Under the pieces are notes generated by a model. That model saw only the letters and a program-made list of their open reading frames with translations, was not told where the DNA came from and searched no databases. From Moniliella sp. 'wahieum' (lineage: Eukaryota): a stretch of 64,000 nucleotides of DNA. A program made the position numbers and the translations under genes. Positions 3,963 through 49,916 of the stretch are shown one piece after another; the stretch's first letter is position 1, and each line of letters opens with the position of its first letter. The stretch is taken from NCBI GenBank assembly GCA_003971905.1, contig RSEE01000008.1:558001-622000 (forward strand), given 5' to 3'.

Positions 3963-4248
3963 GGCGGTGGCGGTAGATGCAGATGGGAGGGAGGGCCCAA
4001 GCGCCGGTAGGCTTCTGATTACGGCTTCCGCATTATGTGCGTTGCGCCCCAGCCAGACGCTGGCGACTGGGATTCGGTGCAAGTGTTGGAGCGGCCGGGG
4101 CGGCTGGGCCTGAAGCTTGAAGCTTGAAGCGTTGAAATGTGAAATGTGAAACGTGAACAATCACACGTCCTTTAATTTTTGCAAGCAAGAAGTTCTTCGC
4201 AGTGCCCCCACCACCGCCGTTGCTACCACGAGTGGCGTCGACGAGAAG

Positions 4249-7200
4249 ATGCTGGGCATTGCTCTCCGTGCTGCCCGAAGTCGGCGCCTCGCAGTGGCTC
4301 CTGCTGCAGTTCGCCCACAGGGAATTGCCGCGTTCCATGCATCGGCTGCGCTGGCCGAGAAGGCCCGCCTCTCCCGCCGCGGCTTCACCATCCCCGGCCG
4401 CAGCAGCAGCCTCAAGCTCAGCCGCGCTAAAATCACGCCCGATCTCAACCTGCGCGTCCCCCCGTCCCAGCGAGAGAAGCGCGAGCGTGCCAGTCTCTCG
4501 GCAGTGCGCGAGCACTACTCAATCGGCCTCGGCAAGCTGTTGGCCCCCGTTCTCGACTCGACCACTACGCAAGGCGAGCGGCAGCGGGCTATGTTCCACG
4601 CAGCTTCCTTTTTTACCAACTCGACCCCTCGTGTGATCAAATTGTCCGACCCTGCGCTGTGGAACCAGATGCTGACTGCACTGGTGGCTGTCGGAGAGCG
4701 GCGGCACCCGATGAAACTCTTTGCCGTCATGAAGCGTAACGGCATCTACCCCGACATGGCCACCTTCACTTCTGTTTTTCGGTCCATGCGCCAGGAACTG
4801 CTACGCCTCGGGCGCGCTAGCGCTCCTAGCAACCCAGAAAATGAAGATAACCTTCCGGTTCCTTCCCATTCTGCTCCCAATTGGGAAAAGACGTTGGATC
4901 AGCGAGGCCCCGATGCCCAGCAGTGGATGCCTTCGTCAATGATCATCCAACACCAGTACTTTGTCGCCGCCTTGGAAAAGTTTCGCATCGCTGTGCTAGA
5001 TTTTTATCGCATGTCTCGCGGAGAGACAGTCGCCTCGACGGGACTGCCCTCACCAGTGCATTACAAGAACCAGCGTCGCAGCACCGGAAAGCACAATGCT
5101 ATGTTCAATGCCCCTCGGTCCCAACTGCAATATACCTAACGATGACCCTTCCGATGCAGCCTATGAGGCTGCGGCTTCCCGCGTCTCACGTCAATCCCAC
5201 GAGCGCTCCCGTGCCATGGCAAGGAACAAGACGTCCTCCCTTGGCCGGAGAGAAGCCGAGGTGCCCAACTTTCTTCCTGGGAGAGGTCAGGACCGTGCTC
5301 TCCTCTCTCCCAAGAATGGTCATCTCGTTTCTGTGAACTCAGACGAGACCCCGGATGATACCGAGTTGGCGGCGATGGACCCGGAATTCGAGGAGTACTC
5401 GGAAGAAATGGCGGCGGCCCAGCGTAGGTTGGACGCAAAAAGGACGATCCAAGCACGCTCCCTGCCACATCGGTTCAAGCCCTGGTTGAGCGGCAGCACA
5501 GCGAGCTGGACGAGGAGAGCCGTGGACATTTGACGCCATGGCAACGCATGTACTTGACCAAACGAAAAGCCTTGCTCCGCGCTGCGGAGCAATGGGACGA
5601 GTTGGCGAACGCTTACTCGTTGGCCATCGGACTGGGATCGATGCTCGGGCGACCCAATCAAGCCTGGGCAATGTACAGCAACATTTCCCTTCCCGGTGCT
5701 CGACGCGGACTTCCATGGCCTAGTGGTCTCATCTTTTACACTGTCCTGCGTCACTTGACTCCTGCCCCAAACGAGGCGCGTGACCTTGCTCGAGCTGAAC
5801 GCGCGGATCTTGCCGCCAAAGAGAAGAACCAAGGTCTGCGTCCGGACGAAATCATCTCCAACTTTGATCCCTACGCTGCCCTGGGGCCCAATGCACTGGA
5901 CAAGAGCTTGACGGCCCACGATGCGGCGAGGGTCACTCTCGAAATGTTGACGGGGGGATCGGGAGCCGGGCTAACGCCTACGGGCCGACCGTTTGAGGCC
6001 GACTCGAGCGATGGGAAAGAGATGCTGCTGCAGTGGCGGCCAAAGCTTCGCGCTGTGGTGGAGGACTGGCTGACCGTCCTTTACAAAACGGCTCGCACGG
6101 TGGATCCACCCGAAAAGTTCCTCAACTCAGTTTGGATGGACGCCCATGCTTTGAACCAAGTGGTGCATACTTTGACTCTAGTACGTTTCCCCTCCTCCTT
6201 TCTGATCCAACACGAGCTAACCTATTCTATATGCAGATGAATGACGAAAAGTCGGCCACTCTCGCGCTGCGCTTAGTGGCGGGCATGTTCAAGGTGTACG
6301 GCAACCTTCCTGTGCCTGTAAAGGAAGAACCACAGCCAGCCAAGCCAGACCCCGTCTCTGTTTCAGAGCTAGCCCCTGTTCCAGAGGGGACCTGGGATGC
6401 GCTCGCGGCAGCCGGTTTGGTCGAGCCCCCTCGTTTGAGATGGATCAAGAGGAGCGTCTTTCCCCGCGCAGCAGTCAGGAAGAAAAAGCGGACAACCCTT
6501 GGCTCACACCAACGGATATGGCAGAACAACGCAAGGCGGACCTGATGACCGAGGAGAGTGACTTTCCTGATGAGGTAGTGCGGGACCAAGACGCCAAGAA
6601 GTCGATTTGCCATGACAAGTGGCATGGAGCAACCGCCTTCACTGGCACAGAAGAGTTCGTCACCTCCATGTGATGCGCCCGACCCAGATGAGGATAAGCT
6701 GTGGAAAAAGGGCCGCGGCAGGTACCAAAAGGGGTTCAAGTCGGGTGGGAAGCACCGCTCTTTGGACCCATTCAAGCGGCGCGGCTACGTGCCCGAGGGA
6801 CAGGAGCTTGATCGCTTCCTTACGGGACCTCTCTTTGCTGAAAAGGGGGATGCGTTACCTGTGTACACGCGGCGGAGTGAGTTGCGGATGGAGCTGCGGA
6901 ACCCCAAGAACAAAGCTATGCTTCACCAGTTGCACACCAACATTATGGTCTGCAGCCACATTGTGGGTCGACCTGAGTTGTACTCCTGGTTGGCTGACCA
7001 CATGGGTGCTGCCGCTCCTAAGACACCGGAGGTGGATCTGCCGTCGATGACGCGCGGTATGTCGTCGGCACGGAGAAGGAAGGTGGCGGCCAAGCTGCAC
7101 AAGTACCCCTTCGGTCGGCCACCTACAATTCTTCCGTTCGACATGCGTCCATCACCCTTTGGACGGACACGGCACTGCGTACCCCTCCTGCTCGCGATGG

Positions 7201-7532
7201 TCAATTGGTTGCCCCAGGCTGGAACGAGTCGGGCGGGGAAAAGTCTCGGAACCGGCACAGGACCTTGGCCAAGGCCAACAGGGGTAAACTCCAGGGACGC
7301 TCTCTCGGCAACGGCAGGCTGGGTCACACAAGTGGGGAGGACGAGCTCAAGTCGGAATTTGCTCGGTTCAGTCAAACCCAGGAGGGAGAACCAGAGGTAT
7401 CGCCCGAGGACACGGCCTGGTCCACGCAACGCACCTGGGGTTGACTCTTCTTCGCAGTCTTCGCGAAACTCGTTCCCTGGCCCAGCCAAGTTTGCCCCGT
7501 CCAAGTTTGCCCCGCCCAGGGGTCGTTCTTGA
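4249..7532 (+). CDS. Large probable mitochondrial protein with a pentatricopeptide-like motif (frameshifted in this assembly)
   Basis: Arg/Ala-rich N-terminus (MLGIALRAARSRRLAV...AFHASA) and a PPR-like WNQMLTALVAVGERRHPMKLFAVMKRNGIYPDMATFTSVF. Consecutive + ORFs overlap in different frames, and there is a canonical intron at ~6181-6236. Confidence 0.6.
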
Positions 7533-7854: not shown

Positions 7855-8335
7855 TTAGTTGGAGCAGTCGCATCCCTGGCCCGTGGGGCAGTCACCAGAG
7901 ATGGTCGCGAAGGCCGAGTTCGTAGTGCAACCGCAGCCCTGGCCGGTAGGGCAGTCACCAGGTACGAAGGAAGGCCGAGAGAAGGAGGCAATGCCACGCG
8001 CATACAGCGCCGACGAAACAGGGGCCTTGACACTGGGACGAGAGGCAAACAGCCCCGTCTGGCGACCCAAAGAGAAAGACCGACCGTTGGAGCAGCCGCA
8101 GCCCGAGCCCGTGGGGCAGTCGCCCGGCACGGTCGAAGGCCGTGCCGAGTTGCTCGAAGAGCAATCACAGCCCTGGCCCGTGGGGCAGTCGCCCGCCTTG
8201 GCGAAAGCGCGTGCAGAGGCACTAAAGGTGCGCACCGTGGTCATTGCCATGGTACGGGACGTGCAGGAGCAGCCGCTGCCAGTGGGGCACTGTGAGTGCA
8301 GTGCGGAGCGCAGGTCGGAGCGTGGCAAGCATCAT
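7855..8335 (-). CDS. Small Cys-repeat protein with five (GD)CPTG(S/Q)GCxC modules and presequence-like spacers; metallothionein-like
   Basis: ORF 7855..8328 has five near-identical CX5CXC modules with third-position codon variation, which argues for coding. The ATG at 8335 (MMLATLRPALRTAL) needs a frameshift; an in-frame ATG lies at 8250 (MAMTTVRTFSASARAFA). Confidence 0.7.
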
Positions 8336-9271
8336 GATGTCGGCGTGGGTGAAGCAGGAAAGTAGAGGAGTGGTGGGTTGGGGGTAGTGTGGTGGGAGAA
8401 AGCGAGACTTGGGAGGCGAAGCGCAGAAAAGGGGAGAAATACGGGTGGCGACACTCGGTGGCCCACCGGGGTCCAAGATCCAATCGATGGTGTGCCGCTG
8501 ATATCAGATGTCGATGTCAGCGATGCTGAAGATACGATCACACTGCCCCCGTGCCAGCATAAAATGAAATTGCATGGGACAAGCAATAGTTGCAGATGGT
8601 GTGATGCCGACTTGGGGTTTTTTATCCAGGTGCCGGCCTAGCCACCCCGCCAACCAAAATCCTACGGTCCAGGCCCTGCGCCCGCGAGCGCGAACGTTAA
8701 CGTGTGACGTGAACGCCGGGAGCAAAGAGCCCGACTGGCAATAGAAGCCCGAGTTGGCCACCGCAACTCCAATCACCGGCCGGCGGTCCTATTCTGAACA
8801 AGGGGGGAAGCGGGGGAGTATGCAGCTAGTTCGCCACCCCGGGCCCAAGGTCACACAGATTTGTGACTCATTTCTGTCGAAAAAAGCTGCAAAACGATAT
8901 GGCCTCGATGGATTGTGTGTGTTGTGATTTCCACCCACCATATCAGGGGAAAGAAGAACACAGTCGTCGGGATGGGACAAATAGAGTCAAAAGTGAATGC
9001 AGATGAAGAAGAGATCTTGTGTCCATCTCAAGAGGAAAAGTATACAACAGGAACAAAAAAGGAACGACAAGGCGGGAAAGAGATGAAGCTCACCAAACCT
9101 TGATATGACGGTATGGCGCCTACCTCCACGCGAAAGGCGGTGTGCGCGCGGTACGAATGATAGTGGAAAAATGCAGCGCGAGACCAGATAATACCAGCAG
9201 CGAAGAGACTCTTGACAGAGAGACCTTTACCCCCCCCCCCCTGCTTATTGTCGAAAACACGTATGACACCG

Positions 9272-10420
9272 TTAAGCCGAAGGTTTAGCTTGGGGACTCA
9301 ATGTGGGACTGAGGGCAAACCAATCGCTCTCTGAAGAAAGAGCGCCTGAACGCGGAGTGAACCGGCCCGAAACAAGTTCAGCTTCATCCGCAGACTCTAG
9401 GGCCTCTGATGCGGGCAAATTCAATGCCGTGGGGGACTGAGGTGGGGTCATGTCGCTCCATGCAACCGAATCCGCCATGCCGACGGAGGGGGACACATTC
9501 TGGGAAGGCGTACTCAAACGGCGGGATGCATGATCATACCCGTCATCCGAGGAGTTCACCGTCACCTCGTTGCGGCTTTGAGTCAGGATTGGGTGCTGAG
9601 CACTTGCTCCCTCCAAGGGTGCAGCAGACACCAAGCTGGCGTCTGAGAAAACCGATTCGGAGCCCAGAAAGGTTACCGCGTTGTCCGACGAAGACAGGAT
9701 CGGATCCGTCAATGAGTGGCGAGGGGACGAACCCGATTCCGCAGCAGCCACAATGGGCACCTCCGCCCCTGCACTGGCCGAAAATTCTTGATCAACAGCA
9801 TCTAGTTCCGCATGCATAGCAGACATCCAAGCGTCAGCGCCATTGCCATCGCCTGTACCGTTCCCATGGCGGCGACGTGGTGCAGTTCCCAGAAGCAAAT
9901 TGACGCCCGAAGCATGAGCAGTCGTGCGCGAGGCCATACTTGTGGCTCCTTCAGCCGGGGACAGGTCGGACGCAGGAATGATAAACGGATTGCGGGGAAG
10001 AGGCGGGGGTGGAGGTCCGCGAACATGAGGTGGAAGAGGAGGAGGGGGAGGACCACGATCCCACAAAGCATTCGGAGAAGAGGGCAAGGGAGGCGATCCG
10101 TGAGCTTTCATTGGCAGCGGTGGGGGAGCAGGTTCGTCCTTGTCATGTTCCGAGTCTGTGTCGTCGGCGTCAAATAGGGTGCGTCCAGCGTCCCCATAGA
10201 CGTCCGTGGGCACATCCCATGGCTGGGGTGGAGGAGGGGGCCGGCGCTGGCGCATTTCGTATCCCGCAGAAACACCAGATTCGTAGGCCATCTGCAGCGC
10301 TCGTTCGCGGGCGCGGCGTTCGCGCTCAGGGCGAAGGATAAAGATGTCCACGGCAATCGCAGCCGCTGCGCCACCGGCCACACCAGCGAGGATCGCGAGG
10401 GAGATGGGGACAGGAAGCAT
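9272..10420 (-). CDS. Hypothetical protein with an N-terminal membrane anchor and Pro/Ser-rich disordered body
   Basis: Uninterrupted ORF; MLPVPISLAILAGVAGGAAAAIAVDIFIL is followed by a charged RPERERRARE segment, poly-Pro tracts and a Ser-rich tail. Confidence 0.6.
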   Translation of the reverse strand: MLPVPISLAILAGVAGGAAAAIAVDIFILRPERERRARERALQMAYESGVSAGYEMRQRRPPPPPQPWDVPTDVYGDAGRTLFDADDTDSEHDKDEPAPPPLPMKAHGSPPLPSSPNALWDRGPPPPPLPPHVRGPPPPPLPRNPFIIPASDLSPAEGATSMASRTTAHASGVNLLLGTAPRRRHGNGTGDGNGADAWMSAMHAELDAVDQEFSASAGAEVPIVAAAESGSSPRHSLTDPILSSSDNAVTFLGSESVFSDASLVSAAPLEGASAQHPILTQSRNEVTVNSSDDGYDHASRRLSTPSQNVSPSVGMADSVAWSDMTPPQSPTALNLPASEALESADEAELVSGRFTPRSGALSSESDWFALSPTLSPQAKPSA

Positions 10421-31380: not shown

Positions 31381-31510
31381 GTCACATGTCACATGCATGT
31401 CACAGCTCATGTCACAGCTCATGTCACAGCTCATGTCACAGCCGGTGTGACATGTGGTCGCACGTGGCTCATGTCACAGCCCATGTCACATGTGATCGCA
31501 CGTGTCACGT
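31381..31510. repeat. Minisatellite of (CATGTCACAGCT)x~4 within a TGTCACA/TGTGACA-rich cluster
   Basis: Read directly: gtcacatgtcacatgcatgtcacagctcatgtcacagctcatgtcacagctcatgtcacagc... Confidence 0.9.
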
Positions 31511-31833
31511 CGCACTCCTAGTAAGTGGGTGCGTCCCCCTCGCATCAAGAGATCCAGTCGAGGATGATATTCAATGCCTCCTCTCTCACCCCCCACAGCG
31601 GGGACATACCACGCAGCTTCATCCCCACGGGCATTCCTAGATCCCTACTCTCCAGCGTGCAACGGCGCCTTGGGTCAAACACTTGCCTGGCCGACTCCAA
31701 TCCAGTTAAATATACCGCTGCCCCCTCCACTTCCAGCCCTCCTCCTCACCACTACCATCCACCCATCCATCCCCTCGCCTACCCGCTACCCGGTCACATT
31801 ACGCCCTGCCCGCTCCCCCGTCTCTTCACGACC

Positions 31834-33367
31834 ATGATACCTGCATCAAGCAACGCGGCCCATGTCAGCGACAGTACGCCGCTCCATTCCAGCGCCACGC
31901 GCACCCTTCCGATATGGAGAGGTCGATGACATCTTCCAATCTGACGTCTTTGACCGGCCGGCAAAGCGAGTATATATCCTTCTTCCTTTCGCTCACACTG
32001 GGAGACACAACCATACAACACGAAAGAACAGCTTCCGACGGTCCGTCCAACGTTCACTCCGAGTTACCAGCTCCCCCGCCGCGGCTGCTTCACCCAGCCC
32101 AACAAGGGCCAAGCGCCCGTTGTTTCGTTCCTGCGGGACGAGGATGAGGGAGAGGGAGAGGACACGGAGACTCGTTCCCCCCGTCCTACCAAGGAGCTGC
32201 GCTCAAAACCTCCCCCCAAACCGGAGCCCAAGTGGAAGTCAAAGGTCAAGGCTACCTTGCGCCGCGAGCGGGTGGAGGTACCCGCGGCGAACGATTTCTC
32301 TTTCGGCCACGTACCCAACAGAATCATGATCAGAGGCGCAGGCGCAACGGAAGCGTACCGCCATGTTCAATGCAGACCTTGAGGCGATCCTAGATCGGTT
32401 TGAACAAAATCTCCAACACTTTGGTGCCAAAGCTTGTGGGACGACAATAACACAACCTCCTTATCCGAATCTTCAGAAGATGAGTGGGACGGGGAGGTGA
32501 GCGAGGAATACTCTGAGCCCGATGAGTGCTCGGTGCAGGAGCTGATCTTCATGGGGGCACCATGCCTGTTTGGTCTGAACGACGATTTCTTCTGTCCCAC
32601 CTAGTCCGAGAAAGAGGACGAGACGGACACAACCAACAGTGGACCACCAAGCCCACACCTTGAGTGCCCTTTGATTATCCCACCCTTCTCCGCATTGGCG
32701 GAGGAGGAGGTGAATAAAGTTGCCTCGGCAAGCAACGATGACCCTCCGAGTCCTACACTTCCGCTTTTGGCCCCCGACGAGACTGATTCGTGTGAAGAAA
32801 ACGAAAGTGATGGGCGCCTCTTCCCTCACCCTGATCCCCTTCGCCCCGTCGTCCCAGGTTGTGCACAGACGAACGGCGACAGGTTCCGCCCCTTCGGGCA
32901 TGGTACCCTTCTTTCTTCCCAATACACACTGCAGGAGTTTGCAGCGCAGCAAGTGGGAGGCCCATCGCTCCACCATCTGTCCAAGAAGCAGCAAAGCAAG
33001 CTTTTCAACGGCCCGGAACCACCAAGAGTTGTAACCGAAGAGCAGCGCCCTTGGAGAAGGACCAGCGGAGCCTGGTGGTGTGGCGCATGGAGGCAGGCTG
33101 CTCAAATGGCCATGCGAGCCAGCTCACCTTGACGAGGCCAAGATGCTGACTGAGTTTGACTGCAGTGTTACATTGCCAATGCCCCATAACCGGCAAGCCG
33201 GGTGCTTGGGCATCGAGCTGGTCCCGCTGGATAACACGGGGCGGTACTGGTCCCCTTGTTTGACCAAGAAAATGGAGGTGGATGCACACTACTTGGCCCA
33301 ACCTGGAGCCTGGCCTCCACCTCTTTGTCGTGGCCTTGATCGACGTGACTACTTTTTTCTCACCTGA
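31834..33367 (+). CDS. Possible orphan or degenerate gene of unknown function
   Basis: A chain of + strand ORF fragments (31862..32329, 32671..33132, 33080..33367) with acidic and Pro-rich protein-like composition. No family recognised and boundaries are uncertain. Confidence 0.3.
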
Positions 33368-33754
33368 GCAAAAAAGGCGGAAGAGCACTCAATGTATGTA
33401 GTGCATATGCATTGCTCTACTTTTCCCCTTTCGGTGACCTCTCGATGACTTCAATGTCAACTACCCTCCGTCTCCCCAAGTGTGGTTGAGACCCCCCCAT
33501 CCCCTCCCATCGTATGGGTGTACACCGCCCTTCCGTGTCTCGTTCTAGAATCGTATGATGGTTTGCCTGGTCCAATTCGTCCACGACTCTAAAGATATAT
33601 AGAGAGTAGAAATAGGAGACCGATGAACTCGCCGTCAGCAGAAAAAGGTATCTCGTCTCCATCCCCATCTCCATGGGTTAACGTGCTGTCGTCCCCGACG
33701 CATCCCACTTGAAGAGCATACCGATTAACACATCCTTTGGGGTGCATGGCCAAG

Positions 33755-33977
33755 GATGAGACCTGGAGTCCTGATGGTCCTTGAGGGTGATGCAATCGCA
33801 CTTGTGGTGGCGGTGTGGCAACCAGCAATGACTACAGAGGAACATCAAGCAAAGACTAGCCCTCAAGGGCTAAGCTGCAGGACAAGGAGGAAAACAAGAG
33901 AGAGAAAACAGCGGAACTCATAGGCCTGAGGAGGAACTGAAGGGACATTGGCCAAAGCACGAGCCCCTAGCTCAACA
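33755..33977 (+). repeat. Dispersed repeat family A, copy 3
   Basis: Aligns with copies 1 and 2 and lies just downstream of the 3' end of the minus-strand retroelement. Confidence 0.8.
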
Positions 33978-34043
33978 GCCAACACCTTATCGCTCACACC
34001 CTCCTGAACCAATGGCATCCGGCGACCTTTTATCTCTGGATTG

Positions 34044-35300
34044 CGTCCATATCATTGACAGGGGAATCGCTACGTCTAAACCGAACCGTTCATCTTGCGG
34101 GGGTTACTTGGAAGCGCCACCAAGGTTAAGGAACCAGGGGGATCGCCAGGATATCAGGACCCTCTGGTTCTCGCCATCCGGTCCGTACCCTAGGAAGCGC
34201 GTGTGGACACGGATGAACGTGGTTGACATCTGAGCGAGGAACCATTTCCACTGAGACTTAGTAGCCAAATCCTTCCAATGCGCAAACATTTGCCCGCCTT
34301 CTTGGTGCCATAGTATCCTCGTGTCGTCAAAACCAGGGGGGAAAACGGCTCTTGAGTGCGTCCCTGGTACTTGGCGTTCTTGTCGCATTCTGCTTGTTCA
34401 AGCAGCCGAAACAGCTCCTTCTCCCGTTCCAAGGGCGTCGCGGTGCTCTCATGCACCACCCTCCGGTACGCGCTCTGCGCCTCCTGCATTTCCGTGTCGC
34501 GCAGCGTGTGGTCTACCTCTATTCCGGATCCTCCGATTGCTCCAGGCCCAATCACACGGTAGTCAGTGCGCTGTGCGTAGACCTCCCCCGGTCAACCATC
34601 TCGACTCATCACTTCATTCTTTCCACCGCCAAGACATCTTGCTCGCCATATTGGCGACATAGTATCATCGTGTCGTCATAACCAGAGAGGAGAAGCGTTC
34701 TTGGATGCGCCCCTGGCCCTTGACATGCTTTCTTTGTTCCAACAGTCAAAGTAGTTCATTCTCCCGCCGTTCCAAAGATGTTGCAGTTCGCTCATGCACC
34801 TCCCTCTACGCTCGTTGTCGAGGTGGGACCTGGGGAGGGAGCGCACGAGCTGCAAGATGGGCTCCCACACCGACTCGTAATGCACCACACTTGGACTGGG
34901 TGCGAGGGCAGGCCATGACATGCTCAAGGGAGGGCATGTCTCCACACTTGCACATGCGGCGCGTGAAACGGCTCAAGATGCGAAGCTGGAGACCAATCTG
35001 AACTGTGGAGCGTCTTGAGCAGCTCCTGTCGGCTCTTCTCCCACACCTAATGCGCCCCGCCCACGCAAGTACCCAGGACCACCAGCCCATCCTCCCGGAT
35101 TTGGGCCCGATCCCGTCCGACGCACGTGCAAAGGTTGAGTGCGAGGCCTGGCGATCCTGATCACTCGAACAATGCCGGTGGCATACCGCCATCGGTAGTT
35201 CATCCCCCCACAGGCGATGAGGCGGATCACAACCGGAAGCAGGGCCGTGGCAGATGCACTTGGTGGGCAGGCCCACCCCAACGTCTTGTCTGAATGTGCG
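34044..35300 (-). mobile_element. Decayed non-LTR retrotransposon 3' region with CCHC knuckle and restriction-like endonuclease (CRE clade, Cnl1/MoTeR-like)
   Basis: VQIGLQLRIL...MCKCGDMPSLEHVMAC (C-x-C-x7-H-x3-C), RTDYRVIGPG...IEVD, EQAECDKNAKY, PFSPLVLTTRG. It is frameshifted, with an internal diverged duplication (34662-34811 vs 34313-34471). No RT domain recognised in the window; the upstream boundary is approximate. Confidence 0.7.
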
Positions 35301-36964
35301 GATCAAACGGACAAGTCACGTTGGTCCAAATCCAACGGAGACTGTCCGGCGCGTCGGCCAGGGCGGTGCCTGGCGGAGCGACACGCACTCCATGGGTGGT
35401 AGGATGAGTGCGGCAGATGGTGGTGCCAAAGGCTGTGGCCCAACGGAGCTTCAACCCGTTCGCCTCTCCAAGTCTAACCCTACTCTTCGTATCTATGACC
35501 AACCCTCCTCTCCAGTGTGGAACGGCCTCTTTGCACTTGGTATATACTCTCCAGCATTGACGCAACGCCTGGTTATTATTATGGTACCCACAGTCTTCGC
35601 AATCCTTCCGAATAGCTCCACCACCAAGCAGACACAGTCAGCCGGCGTGATGGCAAGGTTTCTGGGCAGGGGAACCACGATGGGCGCCTCACCACAGCCG
35701 ACTCTCGGGCCGGCCCAAGACTGATTCAAAGGGGGTCAACATGCAACACCCCACGGAAGAGGGAGAGATAGCGGGCCAATCCATCACTGGTAGCCCAAAC
35801 TTGGTCGCCACGCACTGCGATCATGATCAGGAGTGCTCTGCATCTATCAGGAGATTGAGATGGGGGAAAGGATGAGGATCATCTTCATCGAATGGAAAGG
35901 GGATGAGAGGAATATATGCCTTGGAGAAGAAGAGAACATGCGAGCTAACTAAGTCACACGGAGAAAGAAAGGGGAGCACAACAGGCGAAGGGGGAAAACA
36001 GGGTCTAGAACAAATCAGGAACCAGTCAACCTGGTGACTAGAAGAGGTGCGTCTGATCCCGACAGCATCCGTCACCCTCATCCCCCCTCGTGCGCCGAAG
36101 TGGGGTTTGGGACGGACAAAACAGTCGCCTGTGGCACAGCAACTAAGTAAAAGATGTACATGAGATGGCGTACCTATACTTCAGCTACCCACAGTTCCAT
36201 CTCCCATACCCCTTGGATTCTCAACGTGCTACCCAACTATATCTATGAGGTACAAACACAACAGCGAAACGATGACGGAGGCGGAGCATGGGCAGGAGCG
36301 GAGGGAAGGGAGGATGGAATTGCGCACTGACATGTCACGAACTGTAATTACGCCGACAGATCAATTCCGAGCTCAGCTAATACTCCCCTCCTTGCACCCC
36401 ATGTAGGCACGGATTAGTAGGATCAGCCTTAATTGTCCAGGCAACAGGTCTCATGGGCTTCACGACTTCATTTGGGACTCAGGTGAGAGAGTGAGTGGTG
36501 CAAGGCAATGGGTAGAAGATCCGTCCCATAGCCTGGCGACATAGGAGCCAGAGGATCGGATTGACGCCAGGGGTGTGATCCGGTCCGAAGTGTAGTGGAG
36601 GTGTAGTGTATAATCGAGGGCGGAGAACGGGGCCAACACTGACATCTCCTATGAAGATAAGGCCCAAGACCCTAAGACAAGCAGAACGGCAAGATGCGAG
36701 AAGACCGTAGTAGAGAGCTAAGGGGGGGGGACAAAAGGTATACATCCAGATGGGAGCAAATAGCAGCAGGGGGAGAGCGAAAGAAAAAGAAAAAAGAGGA
36801 GAGGAAAAGACGTGAAGCATCGCGAGGACATTAGGTACGTGGTTGACCCAGGGCCCGTGCCACGGCATGCACGTGAGGTGAACGTTCAACGTGCAGTGCA
36901 GCGCAAGGCCCTGCGATCGCCCCTCCCCCCACAGCAGTAGGCAGCAAGAGGGGTAAGGGGTAGA

Positions 36965-37027
36965 GGACAAGGGACAAGGGACAAGGGACAAGGGACAAGG
37001 GACAAGGGACAAGGGACAAGGGACAAG
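36965..37027. repeat. Microsatellite (GGACAAG)x9
   Basis: Perfect heptamer tandem read directly; lies downstream of the cyclin gene. Confidence 0.95.
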
Positions 37028-37389
37028 GCAAGAAGAGAGAAGACACAGTTCCCGCCCGTCGGGAGGGGTGGACAAGAGGGCGCACGAGGGAGAGGAAGAG
37101 CAAGTTCTTGGCGAGAGACGAAGAATCAACAGGGAACAAGGCAGAAAAAAAGGAGAAAAGAAAACGCGGCAATGAAAATGGAACGGGGCGAAAACTGTGG
37201 TATCAGGCGCGGATGAGAAACGAGGGCGAGGGGCGAGGGCGCGAGAGGACGGGGGGGGGGGGGAGATGGTGGGATAAGAGCCACGAATGCGCCACAGGAT
37301 AGGAGCCACGAATGCGTTACACCTCACGAAGGGACCCAAGCTCACCACACGCGATGGGGGATGAGAAGCGCTTTCATCGGTGCGGTGCA

Positions 37390-39089
37390 TCACGCCCACT
37401 TGGCTGCGGCCGAGATGGAGGGTTGCAGGGGAGACTTGAGCAGCCCATGCGGATGAGAAAGTTGAGACTGTTGTCCGGGGAGAAAGATGGAGGGGGCGGG
37501 GGTGAAGGCGCTAGGGGAGAGAATGTCCATAGAAGTGCAGGCCGATGTGGAGCTGGCAGAAGAGTAGGAGAGACGCGGGACCTCGCCTACGCTAGGCCCG
37601 GTGCTACACCGCGAGGCGGAGGGGGGAAAACTGTGAAACCCCCCCGCCGAGGAGGAGCTAGGCGTGTACCCGGTCCCATTGGACGGTCGGGCGGGGGAGA
37701 TGGAAGCACGGTGGCTGGAGGTGCGGGACGTGCGCGTGGCAGCCGTCACGGGCGGGCCACCAATCGTCGACGCGCGAGACGAACGCGGGGGAACCAAGAG
37801 GGGATCCCTGAACTCGGCCGAGCAGCCCGTTCACTGTACGTCCGCGCCGGTTGCACCATATGCGCTCGGGGCGAAGTGCTACTGCTGGCAGCACTCAAGC
37901 TGTGCCGTCCGGGTTGCTGCTGCGGCGAGGGAAAGGTACCACTGATGGGAGCCGACAAGCGCCAACTGGCCCGAGACCGAGGCGGGGCACCTTCGTCGTA
38001 CAGTGGTGCCACTGCCGCCGTGCCGACGGCCGAGGAAGTGGCCCGAGGCGAGCGCGGTGCAACGCAGGCGAGATAAAGGTAATGTTCCAAGTTGGTAGTG
38101 GGGTCGTTGAGCGACTTGGTAAACGCGGCCAGCTCCGTCGGGTCGACATTGACCTTGTAGTTGAGGAAGCCAAACAGTTCCCGCTCCATGTGGTTGATCT
38201 CCTCGAGCGAAAAGAGGCCCTGGCCAACGATGGTCCAGCTCTTGTTGCTGTACGTGTCGTCACAGATGGACTTGCTGGAGAGCATCATGGCGCTAATGAA
38301 GAGGGGGTGACCACTGCTGCCCCGAGCGGCGGGGAAGTGCTGCTTGAGACGCTTGAGGAGATAGAGGGTATGGTACGTCACCTCCTCGGGAAGGCGGGTG
38401 CGGTACAGCGCATAGGCGACAAATTGGGCCAGTTGGGGCGCCGGCTTTTGCGAAGCACCCACCCTGGGAGCCGATCCGTCACGGCTCGTGCTGGGGCAGC
38501 CAAACAGGAGATTGACAAACCGTTCGCACAAGAGCGAAATATCTGCCGGGGGGGAGCGGAAGAAGAAAGACAGGGGGATCACCCGGTCAGCGCTGCTGAG
38601 CACTTTTTTTTTTTTTTTCTCACAAGCCCCGACAGGGTAAAAGAAAGGGGTGCGGTGACAGCCACAGGCGTGGCTGTCACATGTCACACCAAGTCATACC
38701 CGATGAAGGCGGGGAAGCGGAGGAAAGAACGTACCCCTGAATCCGTAATAGGGATCATAGTCACGCTTGCGCTCGGACTTGGTCGTCGACGATGCCTGGG
38801 CAGAGGCAGATGAGGACGACGGGCGCGTGGCTGGCGGGGCTCGAGACGTCTTTTCGGGGACGGTGGACGCAGGCGGGAGATGGCCGAGGCGGAGGCAGCG
38901 GATGGGTCGCGGCGATGGAAGAAGGTGCGAGCGGTTGTCGGGGGTGGCGGCAGCTGGCGCGGCGGAGGCGTTAGCGGACGCGATGGCAACCGCTGCTCCG
39001 GCACTGGAGCGGGCCGAGGTGCTGGCATGGCGCACACGGCGGGCGGAGGAGGAGCGGGTGGCCCAGGCCGGTACAGACACAGCAGCCAT
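37390..39089 (-). CDS. PHO85-type cyclin (PCL/PHO80 family)
   Basis: Exon 1 ends DYDPYYGFR, followed by intron 38543-38734. Exon 2 reads DISLLCERFVNLLFGCP...FVAYALYRTRL...LYLLKRLK...LFISAMMLSSKSICDDTYSNKSW...EINHMERELFGFLNY. A Ser/Pro-rich tail follows a frameshift. Confidence 0.88.
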
Positions 39090-39440
39090 GACGGATGGAT
39101 GCACGAGGAGGGAGCGCCGGAGGGTGTGGGTGGTGCTGGTGCTGGTGGCGGTGGTGGTGCTGGGGGGGATGGGAAAGAGGAGGAAGGAGAGGGTCGGACC
39201 GACAGGAGGCGGGACGGAGAGGAGTTAGTTATAGGCGCGTGGGTGCGGCGTGCGCCGAGGCAGAGCGCAGGGCAGCCCGGGGGCCGCAGGCAGGCGCAGG
39301 CGCACCCTGGGCCGGCCACACCCCACACTGACCCCGCCCGGCACGGCACCACAGCTCCTGGGTCTCAGTGTGCAATGCAATCTCCCCTCCGAAGCTTCTG
39401 CCAGGCACTCTGCCCGGGCCCTGGCCAGCGCGGCCACACG

Positions 39441-39532
39441 CCTGCCTGCGCTGCCCTGCGCCCGCCTGCGCCCGCCTGCGCCCTCCTGCGCCCCCTGCGC
39501 CTGCCTGCGCCTGCCTGCGCCTGCCTGCGCCC
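39441..39532. repeat. GC-rich ~10-bp tandem repeat (CCTGCGCCYG)x~9 upstream of the cyclin
   Basis: Read directly. Confidence 0.85.
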
Positions 39533-39659
39533 TGTGCTGGGGTGCCACACCCACACCTTGCCCCGTGCGTTGCCTCCGGCGCGCGTCATCCATCACCCGC
39601 TCAGCGCTCGACCTCAGCGCCAACCCCCTGCCGACCCCCTGCAGATTGCATCGCCTGAA

Positions 39660-42600
39660 TCAGCGATCGACAATCGCCGATCATCGATCATCGACCATCA
39701 TCCATCCATCATCGATCATCCTCATGCATCCTCGATCACCCATCGTGCATCAGCGGCAGGCGCCCCGGCCAGTGCACTGGTGCAGTTGCCACCCGCCAGA
39801 GAATGCACCGGGTACGCCACACCACGCCACGCCCCTCCACGCCACGCCACACCCCCCACCCATCGCACACCGCCGGTCGCACACCCACCGTCCCAGCGTG
39901 TACCCTGGCGCACCACGGGTGGGCCGCGTGCGCTGGCCTACCCTGGCCAACCCACGCCTACCCACCCCTACCCTGCTAACTGGAACGCCACGTAGGCCCT
40001 CTTCTTGCAGCTTGCAGGCGGCCTAGCATAGATCATCCATGCTCCGCCGCGCGTCCGTGTCAGCCGTTCCTTGCCTGCCCTGTGGGACGAAGCGCGAGGG
40101 CGCTCCTGCAGGTTCCTGCCTCTTTTACTGCCTGGGGTGCAGTTTGAACGCTCCTCATGCATCGATTGTCGATCATCCATCATCGCACAGTTTGTGAGCC
40201 GCATTTCCGGGCGCATGGTGGCTTGCAGCTGGCAGGACTTGGGCCATGGCGTCAGTCTTCCAGCTTGAGCCGTCTGGGTTGCATCCTGGTAAGTATGCCG
40301 ATCAGCATGCCGTGGATACAGTCAGCGTCGTGCGGAGGCACCCAGCAAGCGCCAAAAGCGCGTAGGCTAACCGCTAAGCGCCTGAGCCTCAGGCCTCGCA
40401 CACCATGCCGGACTAGGCCCTACTACCTACTAGGCATCCAGCTCATTCACACGCCGCCAGAGATCTGATATCTGAGGACGAGCGTGGAGGAGCGCGGAGC
40501 CTGGAGGAGGCTTCAACTACCTTAAACCCTGCCGCTGCCTGCCCTCGACACGTCCAACATAACTTTTGAAAACATCCAATATCCAGAGCTTCCGCCTTCC
40601 ACGTCTTCCCCTCCCAGGCCCCAAAACTCACACTCATGTCACACTCACCGCCACATATCATGTATCACATGATACGCCACATGTCACACGCCAATCACCG
40701 TGTATCACGCTTTGGTTACCCTACTCGCAGCTTCTCGCGGTTGCCAGGTATTGCACAATGCTCTCACAATTCGCGCAGTTCGTTGTTGTGCACACTCTCC
40801 AGGACGATGATGTTCGGCCGTTCTTTGTTATCTTGGCATCGGCCTATCTCGCGCCTGTCTCTTCCCTCAGGGCATCAGCGCCTGCAGTGCGCCAGCGGCT
40901 CTTTTCTCCGGCGTCGCTTTTTTCGGACGGCGCTTTCATCCGCCGCGCGTCTATATCCCCCCGTAGACCATGCGTCCCAAACAGCGTCACAGTCTCTCTC
41001 AACTGGCCGCCATGCAATCTTCCCACAGCTGCGGGAATCCTTTCAACAGCTCGCGGGTCCACGTGATGACGAGTTACCTAGTTACTAATTACTAGTTTAC
41101 TACTAACCAACTCAGCCGCGCACTCACGGTACTCACGTGTCACATGTCACGCCCTGTCACAACTACCACGCTCTCCTGGTCTGGCGTGGTTTCTCTCCCG
41201 CTCGACGCGTTACGCGTTGCGCGTTAGGCGTTATTGGACCCTAGGTGTTAAGCGTTTTTACCACATAACCCGTTTCCTTTTTTCAATGTTCCTGGGCACT
41301 ATCGTATAGTGTTGGATCTTCTGGCAGGCGTCCATCGCTATTGCGTGTCGCCACACCTCAGACCTCACGCCAGTCACGCAGTACTAGTGCAGATAGTTTT
41401 TACTGATACCGAGTATCGAGTGAAGTCTGAGGTCTGTGGCAAGATCCAATCTTCGTCTCGCGCACTAGGCCTTTTCAGACAGCGCCGCAACAAAGCAACC
41501 ATATACCCTAGGCTCCGCCGTCTTGGTCGCTGGGCCAGTGCTCAGCGCTCAACCGCTGCCGCGGTGCCGGGCCCACGTAGCCTGGCAAAATTTGACTTGT
41601 CGAATGGGCGGGTGGGTCGCGTGGCGGTGGCGGACTGTGGGGTGTGGCTACGGTGTGCGCGGCGCCCAGGTGCGCTATAGTAGGTGCACTCTGGTGGTGC
41701 GCTTCGTGGCCGGTGGCCCCCAATTCAACATGGCTCCACGGCCCCCGTTGAAGGCTACCGTACACGTACGCACATGGGCGAAGTGCTAACGCGTTGCACG
41801 TTACACGCTAAGTACGTTAATCGTTAAACCCGCGTCTACTACACGGTATGCATGGTATGCACAGTGCATCATGTGCATCATGCATCATGCATCATGCATC
41901 AGGTCCCGGGCTGAGACCTGAGCCTCAGGTGCCACACAACATACATCAGATAGGACTGGTGACATCACAGGTGGCCATGCGATTGCATACCGTAGAATCG
42001 GGCCGACCGGAGCATTAGGCCGCGGTGGGCCACCGAGTCGTGGTGTTGTAGCGTACTGGGGCGTGGCGTCGCCCGGTGCGTGGCAGAGCAGGGGCTGCGC
42101 GAGAGGGCGGAGCGTGACGCACGGAGGGAGTGTGGCCTATCACGCAGGGCCGTCGGGACTGATCAACTTGACAGATCTGTGGCTGCCGGGTGCGCTTTTT
42201 TGCTCCGCACCGGAGTATAGGATGCGTGCTACAGCGAGTGACGAGCTAGTGACTACTGACGTGGAATGTCACATGTCACATGTCACATGTCACATATCAC
42301 AAGCCACATGCCACCTGTCACGTCTCAGGAGATTCGCGTCACGGAGACATGTTGAATTGGAGCCACATCTGTGATGCCTGTGACATATGAATTCCAGAGC
42401 CACATGTGATGGTGGTAGGTATATAGCAGCCCCTAGTTACTAGTTCGGCCGCATCTTCGTGTCAAGGATGGTGTGGGATGGCGGATGGCGAGGCAGGTAG
42501 GGTGTAGCATATCCAGCAAATGCTGCGAGCCCTCGCCTGTCGTCGCTCCCCGCAGTGCGGAGTGCTCGTGGTGGGTGCAGGTACTGCACCCCCCTTTTCA

Positions 42601-45055
42601 TCCTGTCCTACACAATTTTCTCTGGGAGCTCAGGCTGAGCAGCGCTCCGCCTGAGCGCCGCGCATCACGTGCCACAATGAATCGCACGCGTCATCGTCGG
42701 CATAATTGATCCTTCTTTGCTCTCCAAGAAACCCATTCTCGATTCTCCATTCTTCCAACCTCCGTCTTTCTGCGCGGAGCACGCAGGCACCGCGGCAAGA
42801 AGGCGGGCAGTGTGCGAGGCATTGCATGCTCCCCCACGTCCGAGCCATAATAGCTGGTCACCGGTCACTAGGATCTGTATCCGCGCATCCGACATCATGT
42901 TGCATCATGCATCAGGCCTCAGGCCTCAGCTGAGGCCTCATGTGCATCGGGCCCAGGTCGATCCCAACATCAGGCCATCAGGCCTATCAGGCCCTGCCCA
43001 GGCTAGGCCTGAGGCCCCTGAGGCCCGAGGCCGGATGCAGGCCTGATGCGCCTGATGCACCTGGTGCCTGGGTCTGAGGGGCCTGAGTGAGGGATGCATG
43101 ATGGAGGGTCGTTAATCGATAATCACTCAATTGCTGACTGTACCGTCGAGTATTGTAGTGGCGTCCTGGTCCATCCGGCTATGGACACCGCATGGATGCT
43201 AAAGCGTTTAGAACAGCAGCGCAGGCGATCGATTGCGGGTGAGATGGGCATTGATGGTAGGAAGTAGGACGAGGGCTACAGGAGAAGGTTTGGCTTATGC
43301 GGGTACGCGCGCCGGAGCCCGCGGAGCCTCGGGGCTAGTGAGGCCAGGCTGGAAGTGCACCGCGATCGGTGAGGCTAGTCACCGTGGCAACAGTATACCA
43401 AGTACTGAGATACTCAGACTGAGTTGCCATTAATGGACTGAGCGAGTACTGGGTGCCTGAGATATGTCAGCCGGAGGTGCGAGGACAGGACACATACCGC
43501 ATGGGCGCGCTGCCCTGACTCATACACTCTTGATTAATCGTAACGCGTGTAGCGCGTAATCGACGTAAGATTGGTGTTGATCGAGTTGATCGGTTGAGCG
43601 GTGAGCGGTGAGCGCGTGAGCGACAGATGATCGATCGGTGGAATTAGCGATCCCGCCTTCTTGGGCGATCATATGGATCCGGCCTCTGAAGAGCTGGAAG
43701 CTTCAAAGCCCAGAGGCCCCCACGCCCCCAGTCCCTCAAGGGCATCAGGCCCTCAGGGGTCTCAGGGTGCTCACGCGCTACGAGCGATCCTCGTCAGCTT
43801 AACCACGGCGAAAACCGTACTCTACCCTACTCTATCGGCCAGCCCCCGCACAAGAGAGCCCATACTACATACATACTCATCCATATCTCAGATCTCACAT
43901 CTCGCAACCCCGATAGGTACCTTTTAATAGAGCGCGTCACGCCTCATCAGGGCCTCAGGGCCTTTTAGCTGCTAAGGCCCTAAAGGCCTAGGGGGCTTAA
44001 TTCAGACGTAACGCGTAACGCATACTAAGGGCCGTAAGGCGTAAGGCATAAGGGATTCTCAGCACGCTCAGCGCTGCTCGCAACGCTCACAGGGTCACAT
44101 GTCACTTGTCAGGAGGCCACAGGAGAGGACGTCTCTTGGCCTTCGTCGGTTGCCGGGCCTCTGGCCCTCAGGGCCTCAGGTCCTTCTCGATTGTTCGACG
44201 GCCCTCCATGTCAGGGCTTCCTGTTGTCAGGGCCTTCGGGTATGCCAGGTATCCCCTCGGGCGCGTTAGGAGGGGGCGTTAGGGAGGCCTCGCGCGCCTC
44301 AGGGCCTCAAAAAGTGGGAGCGTCAGACTTGAGTACGTTGAGTCCCTTAGGCCTCGGGGGCTGCCGGGACGGTGGGACCTGTCCATATATGTCAGCGCGT
44401 CAGCCCATGGCCAGGGAGGGCATATTGGAAGGAATGAACCGGCAGGACCCGGGCTTGAGCTATTACCAGCGCCACTCCGCCAGTGTGGGCGACAGGGGAG
44501 GGAAGGGTAGAGCTGGCAGACGATGGAATATGGAGGGCAAAAGGGAGAAGGAAAAAGACCGAGTGTCGCGGCGGCCTCAGTCAGTGGTGTCTGTCTCGCT
44601 TTTGTCCATTCTGTGGCGCAGCTCTAGCAAAGTTTTTAGTGCTGAGAGCGTGCGCTCTAAGATTTAACGCAAGGCTTAGCGCTTAGCAAGCTCAAGTGGC
44701 GCCGAGTAGCACTTGCGCCTTAAAGCTTAGTATGTGATGTTTAGCCTTGGTACTTATTGTACGATGAAGCTTATTGGAGCTTGACTAGCTCGACGCTTGA
44801 GAGCGCAAAGCCTATGGGACTGGGGCCTCAGGCCCTTGAAGCCATAGAAGCTTGAAGCTCGAAGCTTGCTTTTGGGGTCTGAGGTTCTGAGTTCTGTGGC
44901 GGATGCATGATGTATACATGGCGCAGGTGAGATCGACGGCAAAACTGGCTGGCGTCGGTACTTGAAGCTCCAAGCTCCAAGCTCCAAAAGCTCGAAGCTC
45001 CAAGCTCCAAGCCTGCTGTTCACAAGCGCAAAGCTCTAATCTACAAAGCTCCAAC
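39660..45055. repeat. Gene-free region dense in 7-bp-period palindromic micro-arrays
   Basis: (TGCATCA)4 at 41874-41901, (ATGTCAC)4 at 42266-42293, TCAGGCCTCAGGCCTCA at 42912-42928, ACGCGTTACGCGTT at 41205-41218, ATCATCGATCATCGA at 39680-39694, AAGCTCC/AAGCTTG runs at 44847-45012. Confidence 0.8.
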
Positions 45056-48483: not shown

Positions 48484-49223
48484 ATGTCTGGCGTCATGCC
48501 CGCCCAGTTCTTGCGCGAGTACAAGTTGGTCGTCGTCGGCGGGGGCGGCGTCGGCAAGAGCGCGCTCACCATCCAGTTCATCCAGTCCCACTTTGTCGAC
48601 GAGTACGACCCCACCATTGAGGACTCGTACCGCAAGCAGTGTGTCATCGACGACGAGGTCCCCTCCTCGACGTCCTCGACACCGCCGGCCAGGAAGAGTA
48701 TTCGGCCATGCGCGAACAGTACATGCGCACCGGCGAGGGCTTCCTGCTGGTCTACTCGATCACCAGCCGCAACTCGTTCGACGAGATCTCCCTCTTCCAC
48801 CAGCAGATCCTCCGAGTCAAGGACAAGGACCGTTTCCCGGTCGTTGTCGTTGCCAACAAGTGCGACCTGGAGTACGAGCGGCAGGTCGGCTCCCACGAGG
48901 GCCGCGAGCTGGCCAAGATGTTTGGCTGCCGCTTCACCGAAACCAGCGCCAAGCAGCGCATCAATGTCGACGAGGCCTTCTATAACCTGGTCCGCGAGAT
49001 CCGCCGCTTCAACCGTGAGCAAGGCGCCGGGCATAGCGGATTGGGCGGCGCCGCGGGCTCCGGGTACGGTGCAGGCGCGGGTGTTGGCGCGGGTGCCGGG
49101 GCCGGGGCAGGCGCGGGCGGGCCGACCCAGTCCGGCGCCGGGATCGCTGGAGGGATGCAGCACATGCACACGGACGATGGCCACCAAAATGCTGGCTGCT
49201 GTGGCGGATGCATCATCCTCTAA
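48484..49223 (+). CDS. RAS1: Ras small GTPase (Ras1 type)
   Basis: [23 protein letters not shown]...[27 protein letters not shown]-terminal GCCGGCIIL (CAAX). One-base deletion at ~48660. Confidence 0.96.
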
Positions 49224-49916
49224 TCCATGCAATGGGTCCTGTGCCTGAATCCGCGCCCTTTGCCTTCCCTCGCCTTCCACTCCTCGATCTTCCCATCGCC
49301 CCGCTCCGCGTGTTGCCCAGCTCGCCCAAAAGACTATTCTGCTTCGTCGGGGAGCTTCTCACCCCGCCTCAGCGCATGGTCCCAGCCCCCTCCCCCCTTC
49401 TCGAAGGGATGGTTGGCTCTGGTGCTCCGCCTGTATACCACTCCCCTCTTTTCGCTCCTTTTGGCCCGGCTCCTTGACTTCTCTTTTCTTCATGGCGCTC
49501 CCAGTCTGGAGGCTAGCTTATTCGTCTGCTGGTTCTCTCGACCGTCCTGTCGTTTCTCTTTTTTTGTCCATCTTTTTTCCTGCCCCGGAATGGAGTCCCC
49601 TCCCAGCCGTTGGTTTTGGGGTCTTGTTATTAGCTTTGAGTTATCTGCACACCGCCATAGAGGGCACGCCTTTCTTGTCTCTTTCTCGCCTTGGTGCTTG
49701 AAGGTGGTTTGGTGCTGCGTATTGAATTCAACAACCCAACACCCAACGAGGGGGGAGCTCTGCACATAGGTTGTGCAAGCCAATCGCCCAACGCCCATCA
49801 GGGGTGCTTACCTAACATCCTCCGCGCCCTCCACGCCGACGCTTGGTACTTCGTCCCGCTTAGTTCTAGCCAGCGGACCACCACCACGGCACCCGCCCCT
49901 GTTCCCATCCTTTAGC

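Follow-up and report, generated by a model that had tools for sequence, protein, structure and literature searches.

The window analysed here, 64,000 nucleotides of the genome of Moniliella sp. 'wahieum' (contig RSEE01000008.1, positions 558,001 to 622,000), carries on its minus strand a small gene which, judged from its sequence, is real, old and lineage-restricted. Its predicted product is a chain of cysteine-rich modules joined by linkers with the look of mitochondrial presequences. We give close to an even chance to the view that this product is targeted to the mitochondrial matrix and binds metal, with or without a cut inside the chain; the more specific proposal of a matrix-targeted, metallothionein-like precursor, which the mitochondrial processing peptidase (MPP) would cut into six-Cys peptides of ~35-45 aa, is put forward tentatively. 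The case is built on the sequence of one lineage in one error-rich assembly.

Gene organization

The minus-strand frame at 7855-8331 contains five CX5CXC modules with 15 Cys in total, as the initial annotation had stated (Table 1). A six-frame translation of the window gives 16 occurrences of this motif, of which five are in the candidate gene. The codon pattern of the module has 10 matches in the 69.5 Mb genome, all in the candidate gene and its copy on contig C23, and the reversed pattern, used as the control, has none. A relaxed module pattern revealed no paralogues in the genome, 8/8 matches lying in the two known copies.

The four spacers between the modules are 25, 14, 46 and 12 aa long and hold 3, 1, 5 and 0 Arg, respectively; spacer 2 thus has a single Arg, and spacer 4 has neither Arg nor Lys. 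They had been described as free of acidic residues, and D and E are indeed absent except for the Asp of the GD preceding modules 2-5. The reported sequences RTFSASARA, RSFS and RGIAS are all found in the frame. Both of the proposed starts exist, at 8335 and 8250, the former being out of frame in the window. The product from Met at 8250 is 131 aa long with four modules, and would reach ~160 aa if the upstream start were in frame.

Di-module B, with the end of the linker before it, is a duplicate of di-module A and the corresponding linker end; the two halves align at 55% identity over 49 aa, with the linker Arg in register. From this alignment we read the protein as module 1, a linker, di-module A, a second linker and di-module B, the di-modules having arisen by internal duplication. 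AlphaFold2, run on the single sequence without an alignment and therefore weak, gave a mean pLDDT of 47 and no helix. As for RNA features, there is no Rfam match, and the RNA structure at the frame break is ordinary (z -0.33).

Table 1. Features of the candidate gene and its relics (window coordinates unless a contig is named)
Feature	Position	Strand	Remarks
93-nt upstream block	8466..8558	minus	Identical in both close copies; longest identical upstream run
Pyrimidine-rich 5' leader	8336..8435	minus	77% C+T
Upstream start + 15 acid-free codons	8291..8335	minus	Presequence-like; out of frame in window
Frame break	8290..8297	minus	Window short by 2 nt near 8291
Module 1 (CX5CXC)	8263-8289	minus	Single; 5' of second Met
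Spacer 1	8188..8262	minus	25 aa; presequence-like; contains second start (8250)
Spacer 1 motifs	8232; 8211		R-x-F-x-x-S at 8232 (MPP then MIP type); second R-x-F at 8211
Di-module A	8086..8193	minus	Modules 2 + 3, 14-aa spacer; 36 aa, 6 Cys, net charge -2
Module 2 (CX5CXC)	8161-8187	minus	
Module 3 (CX5CXC)	8092-8118	minus	
Spacer 3	7954..8091	minus	46 aa; internal presequence-like linker
Spacer 3 motifs	8082; 7998		R-x-F-x-x-G at 8082; R-x-I at 7998
Di-module B	7858..7959	minus	Modules 4 + 5, 12-aa spacer; 34 aa, 6 Cys, net charge -3
Module 4 (CX5CXC)	7927-7953	minus	
Module 5 (CX5CXC)	7864-7890	minus	
Stop codon	7855..7857	minus	Identical in C23 copy
Relic on C2	248390-248554	minus	Pseudogene relic of gene's 5' third
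Relic on C94	212414-212579	minus	Pseudogene relic of gene's 5' third

Elsewhere, gene-poor stretches of the window at 31385-44300 hold many short 7-nt tandem repeats (GTGACAT/ATGTCAC-like units) and other microsatellites. A very long, nearly intronless gene lies on the plus strand at 55668-62645, 7 kb from a Ras-like gene at 48621-49248, and may encode a RasGAP of the neurofibromin/Ira type.

Coding strand

The plus strand is also open across this region, with a 168-aa frame of Q/P-rich repeats at 7859-8365 that has its third codon positions in common with the minus frame and begins directly after an AG with a branch-like motif. Were this frame to code, perhaps as the last exon of the upstream PPR gene, the Cys modules would be its antisense shadow. 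There is a precedent for this. Our metagenome pattern scan yielded three loci, all rejected, two being isolated chance matches; in the third, the same Cys motif arises only because a bacterial Q/P-rich repeat gene is read on its antisense strand. The bacterial protein (464 aa, with 15-residue Q/P/W-rich repeats) has an antisense that reads as a metallothionein-like Cys repeat (metagenome locus 657-2051, minus), and the antisense of such repeat genes is a general trap for Cys-repeat ORFs.

For the present locus we nevertheless hold this explanation to be very improbable. When synonymous codon use was scored after training on 3538 codons (12 long frames of the window), the minus frame received +28.1 bits and the plus frame -19.1; in leave-one-gene-out calibration 17/17 chunks were assigned rightly, with means of 26.5 for sense and -33.9 for antisense. 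Six of the 11 Gly codons in the plus frame are GGG, whereas the training genes mostly use GGC, and all 15 Cys codons of the minus frame stay TGY. The pyrimidine-rich leader sits on the minus strand, and its 77% C+T in the 100 nt before the ATG at 8335 is reached by 0.35% of 2556 100-nt windows. Finally, the relics of the gene described below follow an unrelated upstream gene, and no PPR match was found at the relic sites. Because the codon score favours the minus frame and the leader lies on the same strand, we take the minus strand as the coding one and judge the plus frame to be non-coding.

Second copy and frame break

A second copy of the gene is located on contig C23 (243863-244340) and is 95.7% identical over 10 kb to the window copy, which corresponds to 565855-566335 of contig C8. 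Near the break in the window (Table 1) the C23 copy is short by 1 nt, close to 8297 and six bases from the window's gap; it is also short by two single bases in spacer 3, which brings its frame breaks in the assembly to three. At the window's gap, both relics (C2 and C94) support the C23 reading. We also considered an intron with its end at 8290; it is unlikely, since C23 has no YAG there and no donor was seen with the upstream start.

The two close copies are broken at sites no more than 6 nt apart, the C23 copy has two further breaks, and the other subgenome carries a pseudogene, all of which might be expected of a once-functional gene now decaying, in which at least one break is real and the full product is not made. 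We regard such decay as quite unlikely. Essential genes are similarly broken in the same assembly, 3/4 of the citrate-synthase-family loci with long matches being in pieces and 3/3 of the SQR-mL58 loci examined showing frame shifts; the two close copies differ by 36 indels in about 3.26 kb; and the break positions differ between copies. For these reasons the 5' break is most likely a long-read sequencing error. Moreover, the frame from Met at 8250 is intact in the window, so that the argument for a gene is independent of this break. The ORF is also better conserved between the close copies than its flanks (7 substitutions in 481 nt versus 98 in 2776 nt, p 0.017), and no Cys codon is changed. 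Four of the seven ORF substitutions alter residues (3 codons), so that dN/dS carries no clear signal and selection at the protein level is not proven.

Age of the gene and subgenomes

Two subgenomes, ~70-80% identical to each other, seem to be present in the assembly, and each is represented twice, by copies ~96% identical. The gene upstream of the candidate (window 9272-10420) has two further copies, 70-72% identical, on C2 and C94, and its copies pair as C8/C23 and C2/C94. The neighbouring PPR-repeat gene (window 4150-7532, plus strand), found only on C8 and C23, is convergent with the candidate, has a presequence-like N-terminus and is broken by indels into several frames.

Both further copies of the upstream gene are followed on their 3' side by a relic in the same orientation, which covers module 1, spacer 1 and module 2. 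These relics have local alignment scores of 77 and 76; the highest values from 200 shuffles were 54 and 52, and the highest from 60 unrelated stretches was 59. The first, second and third codon positions are identical at 30, 29 and 22 of 42 sites, the third being the most diverged; the corresponding values for the neighbour gene are 0.77, 0.86 and 0.60. In the C94 relic the stretch F-S-A-S-x-R of spacer 1 has survived three synonymous changes, and in the C2 relic it has one replacement; both relics have lost the Arg that precedes it and both starts. Since insertions and a stop are common to the two, we consider them a real pseudogene. Neither the promoter nor the 3' UTR of the relics aligns with that of the candidate gene. 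A decayed relic at the syntenic position in a diverged subgenome argues that the gene is old; it is judged to predate the subgenome split and to have been lost in one subgenome.

Homologue searches

None of the 341 candidates drawn from 5.8 billion proteins of 79-254 aa stood at E<=0.01. The sole match by phmmer among 1.84 billion representatives was an unrelated acidic repeat protein of 24% identity, and was rejected. The ESM Atlas, searched with the whole protein and one di-module, gave no usable match, the PDB sequences gave 0 matches, and in Pfam and NCBIfam nothing lay above the cut-off, including any redox or Fe-S fold. GTDB contributed 0/599 candidates; in IMG/VR 1/15 was retained and then dismissed as a single chance module. 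The initial annotation had recognised no described family, and this holds: no homologue was found in these collections, and the Cys patterns of described fungal metallothionein (MT) units do not occur in the protein.

The host's own relatives are thinly represented. Its citrate synthase has its best matches, among the matches listed, in Ustilaginomycotina, with 63-72% identity. Trees made with 29 and 14 of the 120 listed matches place the host on a long branch, its order not being resolved; a clade with Tilletia indica was rejected (p-AU 0.027) and one with Pseudozyma flocculosa was not (0.31). With no close host relative in the collection (nearest citrate synthase 72%), the lack of homologues reflects poor sampling rather than uniqueness.

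Possible mitochondrial targeting signals

The R-2-type MPP motif is described as R-x-aromatic (PMC8734313), and the combined MPP+MIP motif as R-x-[FLI]-x-x-[STG] (PMC8835746). With the patterns fixed from this literature and not fitted to the observed spacers, the 97 spacer residues contain three R-x-aromatic sites, where the rate in 3298 background residues predicts 0.35, and two MPP+MIP sites, where it predicts 0.21, or ~9-fold above background coding sequence. All such motifs are confined to spacers 1 and 3. Shuffling within the spacers reached the observed counts in 477 and 973 of 20000 trials (p 0.024-0.049). The exact spacer-1 motif has eight matches in the genome, two in the candidate gene and six not presequence-like, and is unusable as a control.

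We also scored composition, taking 120 N-termini of fungal citrate synthases as the training set. Relative to 3045 background windows, the highest-scoring 23-mer of spacer 1 ranks in the top 0.4% and that of spacer 3 in the top 0.7%. The two short spacers, 2 and 4, score as high (0.64, 0.56), so that composition cannot single out cleavable linkers. The N-terminus from the upstream start scores 0.27, the 95th percentile of the background being 0.21, which is weak when taken alone. Hydrophobic moments of 0.64 and 0.66 compare with 0.54-0.81 for three presequences of the same genome, and are not above those of shuffled sequences (652 and 1194 of 5000).

The earlier proposal that the starts and spacers are presequence-like thus has some support from motifs and composition for the N-terminal region and spacer 3, and none from amphipathicity. 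Spacers 1 and 3 have the motifs of MPP-cleavable sequences, and spacers 2 and 4 are short and motif-free. The release of single small modules, also proposed, is not supported: because 2/4 spacers are without cleavage-type motifs, the released unit would be the six-Cys di-module. Overall, the evidence for mitochondrial signals is consistent but moderate.

There is a parallel within the genome. A stretch resembling SQR (E 6e-12 to human SQR) lies upstream of a match to PF12824 (mL58) on contigs C57, C32 and C4, and in 3/3 copies examined, of 4 matches, the junction is an acid-free linker with R-x-F-x-x-S. Internal presequences thus appear to be in use in this lineage, and the linker of the candidate looks to be of the same type.

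The internal duplication copied the end of the linker along with the di-module, and the internal presequence look may be a by-product of this event. The precursor might then be imported, bind metal and be cut only at its N-terminus, leaving one mature four-module chain whose spacer 3 was copied from the presequence. The linker Arg kept in register fits such an origin, as does the second half of spacer 3, which has R-x-I and not the aromatic residue of the R-2 motif (PMC8734313), and Tremella MT is reported to work as a single long modular chain (PMC4755600). Yet spacer 3 is far more diverged than the modules and still acid-free over 44 residues, the full MPP+MIP motif is in its first half, outside the duplicated stretch, and MPP has been proposed to scan unfolded precursors for internal sites (PMC8734313). 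We look upon an uncut chain as unlikely.

Cysteine modules and copper

Cys accounts for 10.4% of the whole frame, which has 8 aromatic residues, and for 17-18% of the di-modules. For comparison, TmMT has 23% Cys, and a fragment of it is without aromatic residues (PMC4755600). The CxC pairs of the modules stand among G/S/T/P residues. Given this context and the growth by internal duplication, both as in fungal MTs, we infer by analogy that the candidate product binds metal. The Pfam MT profiles do not match the candidate; they are equally blank for a 28-aa Cys-rich piece of the conventional MT-like gene of this genome. The latter has ~11 Cys and two copies 80% identical (C2 near 1075300, C9 near 212160), and its acidic P/S/E/D spacer contrasts with the acid-free spacers of the candidate.

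A mitochondrial Cys peptide need not be a Cu/Zn buffer, and could instead be a thiol redox or persulfide buffer or bind Fe-S. Three Cys per CX5CXC module match neither the Tremellomycete nor the Agaricomycete MT unit as these are described, and matrix copper chelation harms cytochrome oxidase in engineered strains. Such a role is nonetheless improbable, for there is no match to a redox or Fe-S family, CxC in a G/S/P context is MT-like, and the twin CX3C/CX9C spacing, which is that of Mia40 substrates, is absent.

The genome has six copper-fist matches. Within the upstream 93-nt block there are three GCTGA cores at 8501-8529; the test is post hoc, and 17/637 300-nt windows hold three or more. 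We take GCTGA to be the Ace1-type core, and the cores in the block to be possible, if weak, sites for a copper-fist factor. Stricter Ace1-type and Mac1-type promoter patterns are at or below chance, and the k-mers common to the promoters of the candidate and the MT-like gene are mostly C-rich leader words.

These cores and copper-fist matches would suit a cytosolic modular MT-like protein with S/A/T/R-rich low-complexity spacers that resemble presequences by chance. The four spacers are indeed alike in composition score, the within-spacer statistics are marginal, and spacer-bearing modular MTs are known in basidiomycetes (PMC4755600, PMC12508003). Chance resemblance, however, has to account for two possible N-termini that are both acid-free and contain Arg, and for the excess of the literature-defined motifs over background. 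In addition, a conventional MT-like gene, its spacers acidic, is already present in the genome, and aromatic residues are atypical of MTs. A cytosolic protein seems to us, on balance, a poor prospect.

Proposed processing and its significance

In the mechanism that we propose, the nuclear gene would give a small unfolded Cys-repeat precursor whose N-terminal region would serve as a matrix presequence. MPP and then MIP/Oct1 would remove this presequence at the spacer-1 motif, and a second cut, in spacer 3, would set free a pair of acidic six-Cys peptides, each about 35-45 aa long. Both would bind Cu(I) or Zn by their thiolates, in the style of a minimal metallothionein, and buffer matrix metal. 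Expression, import, cleavage and metal binding are all steps that we infer from the nucleotide sequence. Taken as a whole, that is, as a natural matrix metallothionein made as a repeat polyprotein, with one import and several six-Cys peptides released by MPP/MIP, the scheme is possible but doubtful.

Among the points against it, engineered matrix MTs lower cytochrome oxidase activity, and a natural matrix MT would by analogy carry a cost; furthermore, the copy of the gene in the other subgenome is dead and has also lost the Arg of the motif. If the proposal is true, a dedicated peptide manages the matrix copper pool in some fungi as a proteinaceous buffer; in yeast the ligand that binds this pool is described as unidentified and not a protein (PMC9813906). 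Composite mitochondrial precursors would also be extended from two-enzyme fusions to multicopy peptide delivery, and among MPP-cut precursors in the literature searched this would be the first whose cargo consists of homologous repeats.

Comparison with known systems

Kex2-processed repeat precursors of fungi have an ER signal peptide and KR/RR sites between the repeats. The initial annotation saw neither in the candidate, and inspection of the frame agrees, there being no hydrophobic N-terminal core and no dibasic pair.

The modular Cu-thioneins TmMT of Tremella mesenterica and CnMT1/CnMT2 of Cryptococcus neoformans have the 7-Cys unit CXCX3CSCPPGXCXCAXCP (PMC4755600). As they are described there, they have in common with the candidate that Cys clusters are multiplied by internal duplication into units of 6-7 Cys, that an N-terminal segment carries 3 Cys, and that CxC pairs occur, with small residues between the Cys. 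The candidate differs in having CX5CXC, 6 Cys per pair, its lower overall Cys content and aromatic, Arg-rich linkers; the 7-Cys unit does not occur in it, and there is no sequence match. The available part of PMC4755600 does not mention a targeting signal. Agaricomycete MTs have the heptaCys motif C-x4-C-x-C-x2,3-C-x-C-x4-C-x-C, with extension by internal duplication (PMC12508003). Such duplication is common to both, the heptaCys motif is absent from the candidate, and only its start (C-x4/5-C-x-C) resembles one module.

MPP is known to cut composite precursors internally, namely yeast Arg5,6 and Atp25, S. pombe Rsm22-Cox11 and Etp1, and rice RPS14 (PMC8734313). The likeness here would be in the N-terminal presequence and in an internal MTS-like linker, spacer 3, which fits the R-2 motif by pattern. 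Those precursors, as described, join two different folded proteins and their cleavage is demonstrated, whereas the cargo of the candidate would be near-identical, repeated, unfolded Cys peptides and its cleavage is predicted.

Thiolate metal binders inside mitochondria are the remaining parallel. Yeast Cup1 is found in the intermembrane space (PMC9813906), and mammalian MT is imported into mitochondria for degradation by LONP1 (10.64898/2026.06.09.731205). Presequence fusions of the engineered matrix MTs Crs5 and PaMT1 are imported and draw matrix copper, cytochrome oxidase activity is lowered, and in Podospora with a matrix MT respiration shifts to the alternative oxidase (PMC2654708, PMC9813906). 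In the accounts cited, no MT among these both occurs naturally and has a cleavable presequence of its own or internal MPP sites, and the openly accessible literature searched yielded neither a natural presequence-bearing MT nor a description of a protein like the candidate. If our reading holds, the candidate would be processed in the manner of Arg5,6 and Atp25, and its cargo would resemble a modular Cu-thionein.
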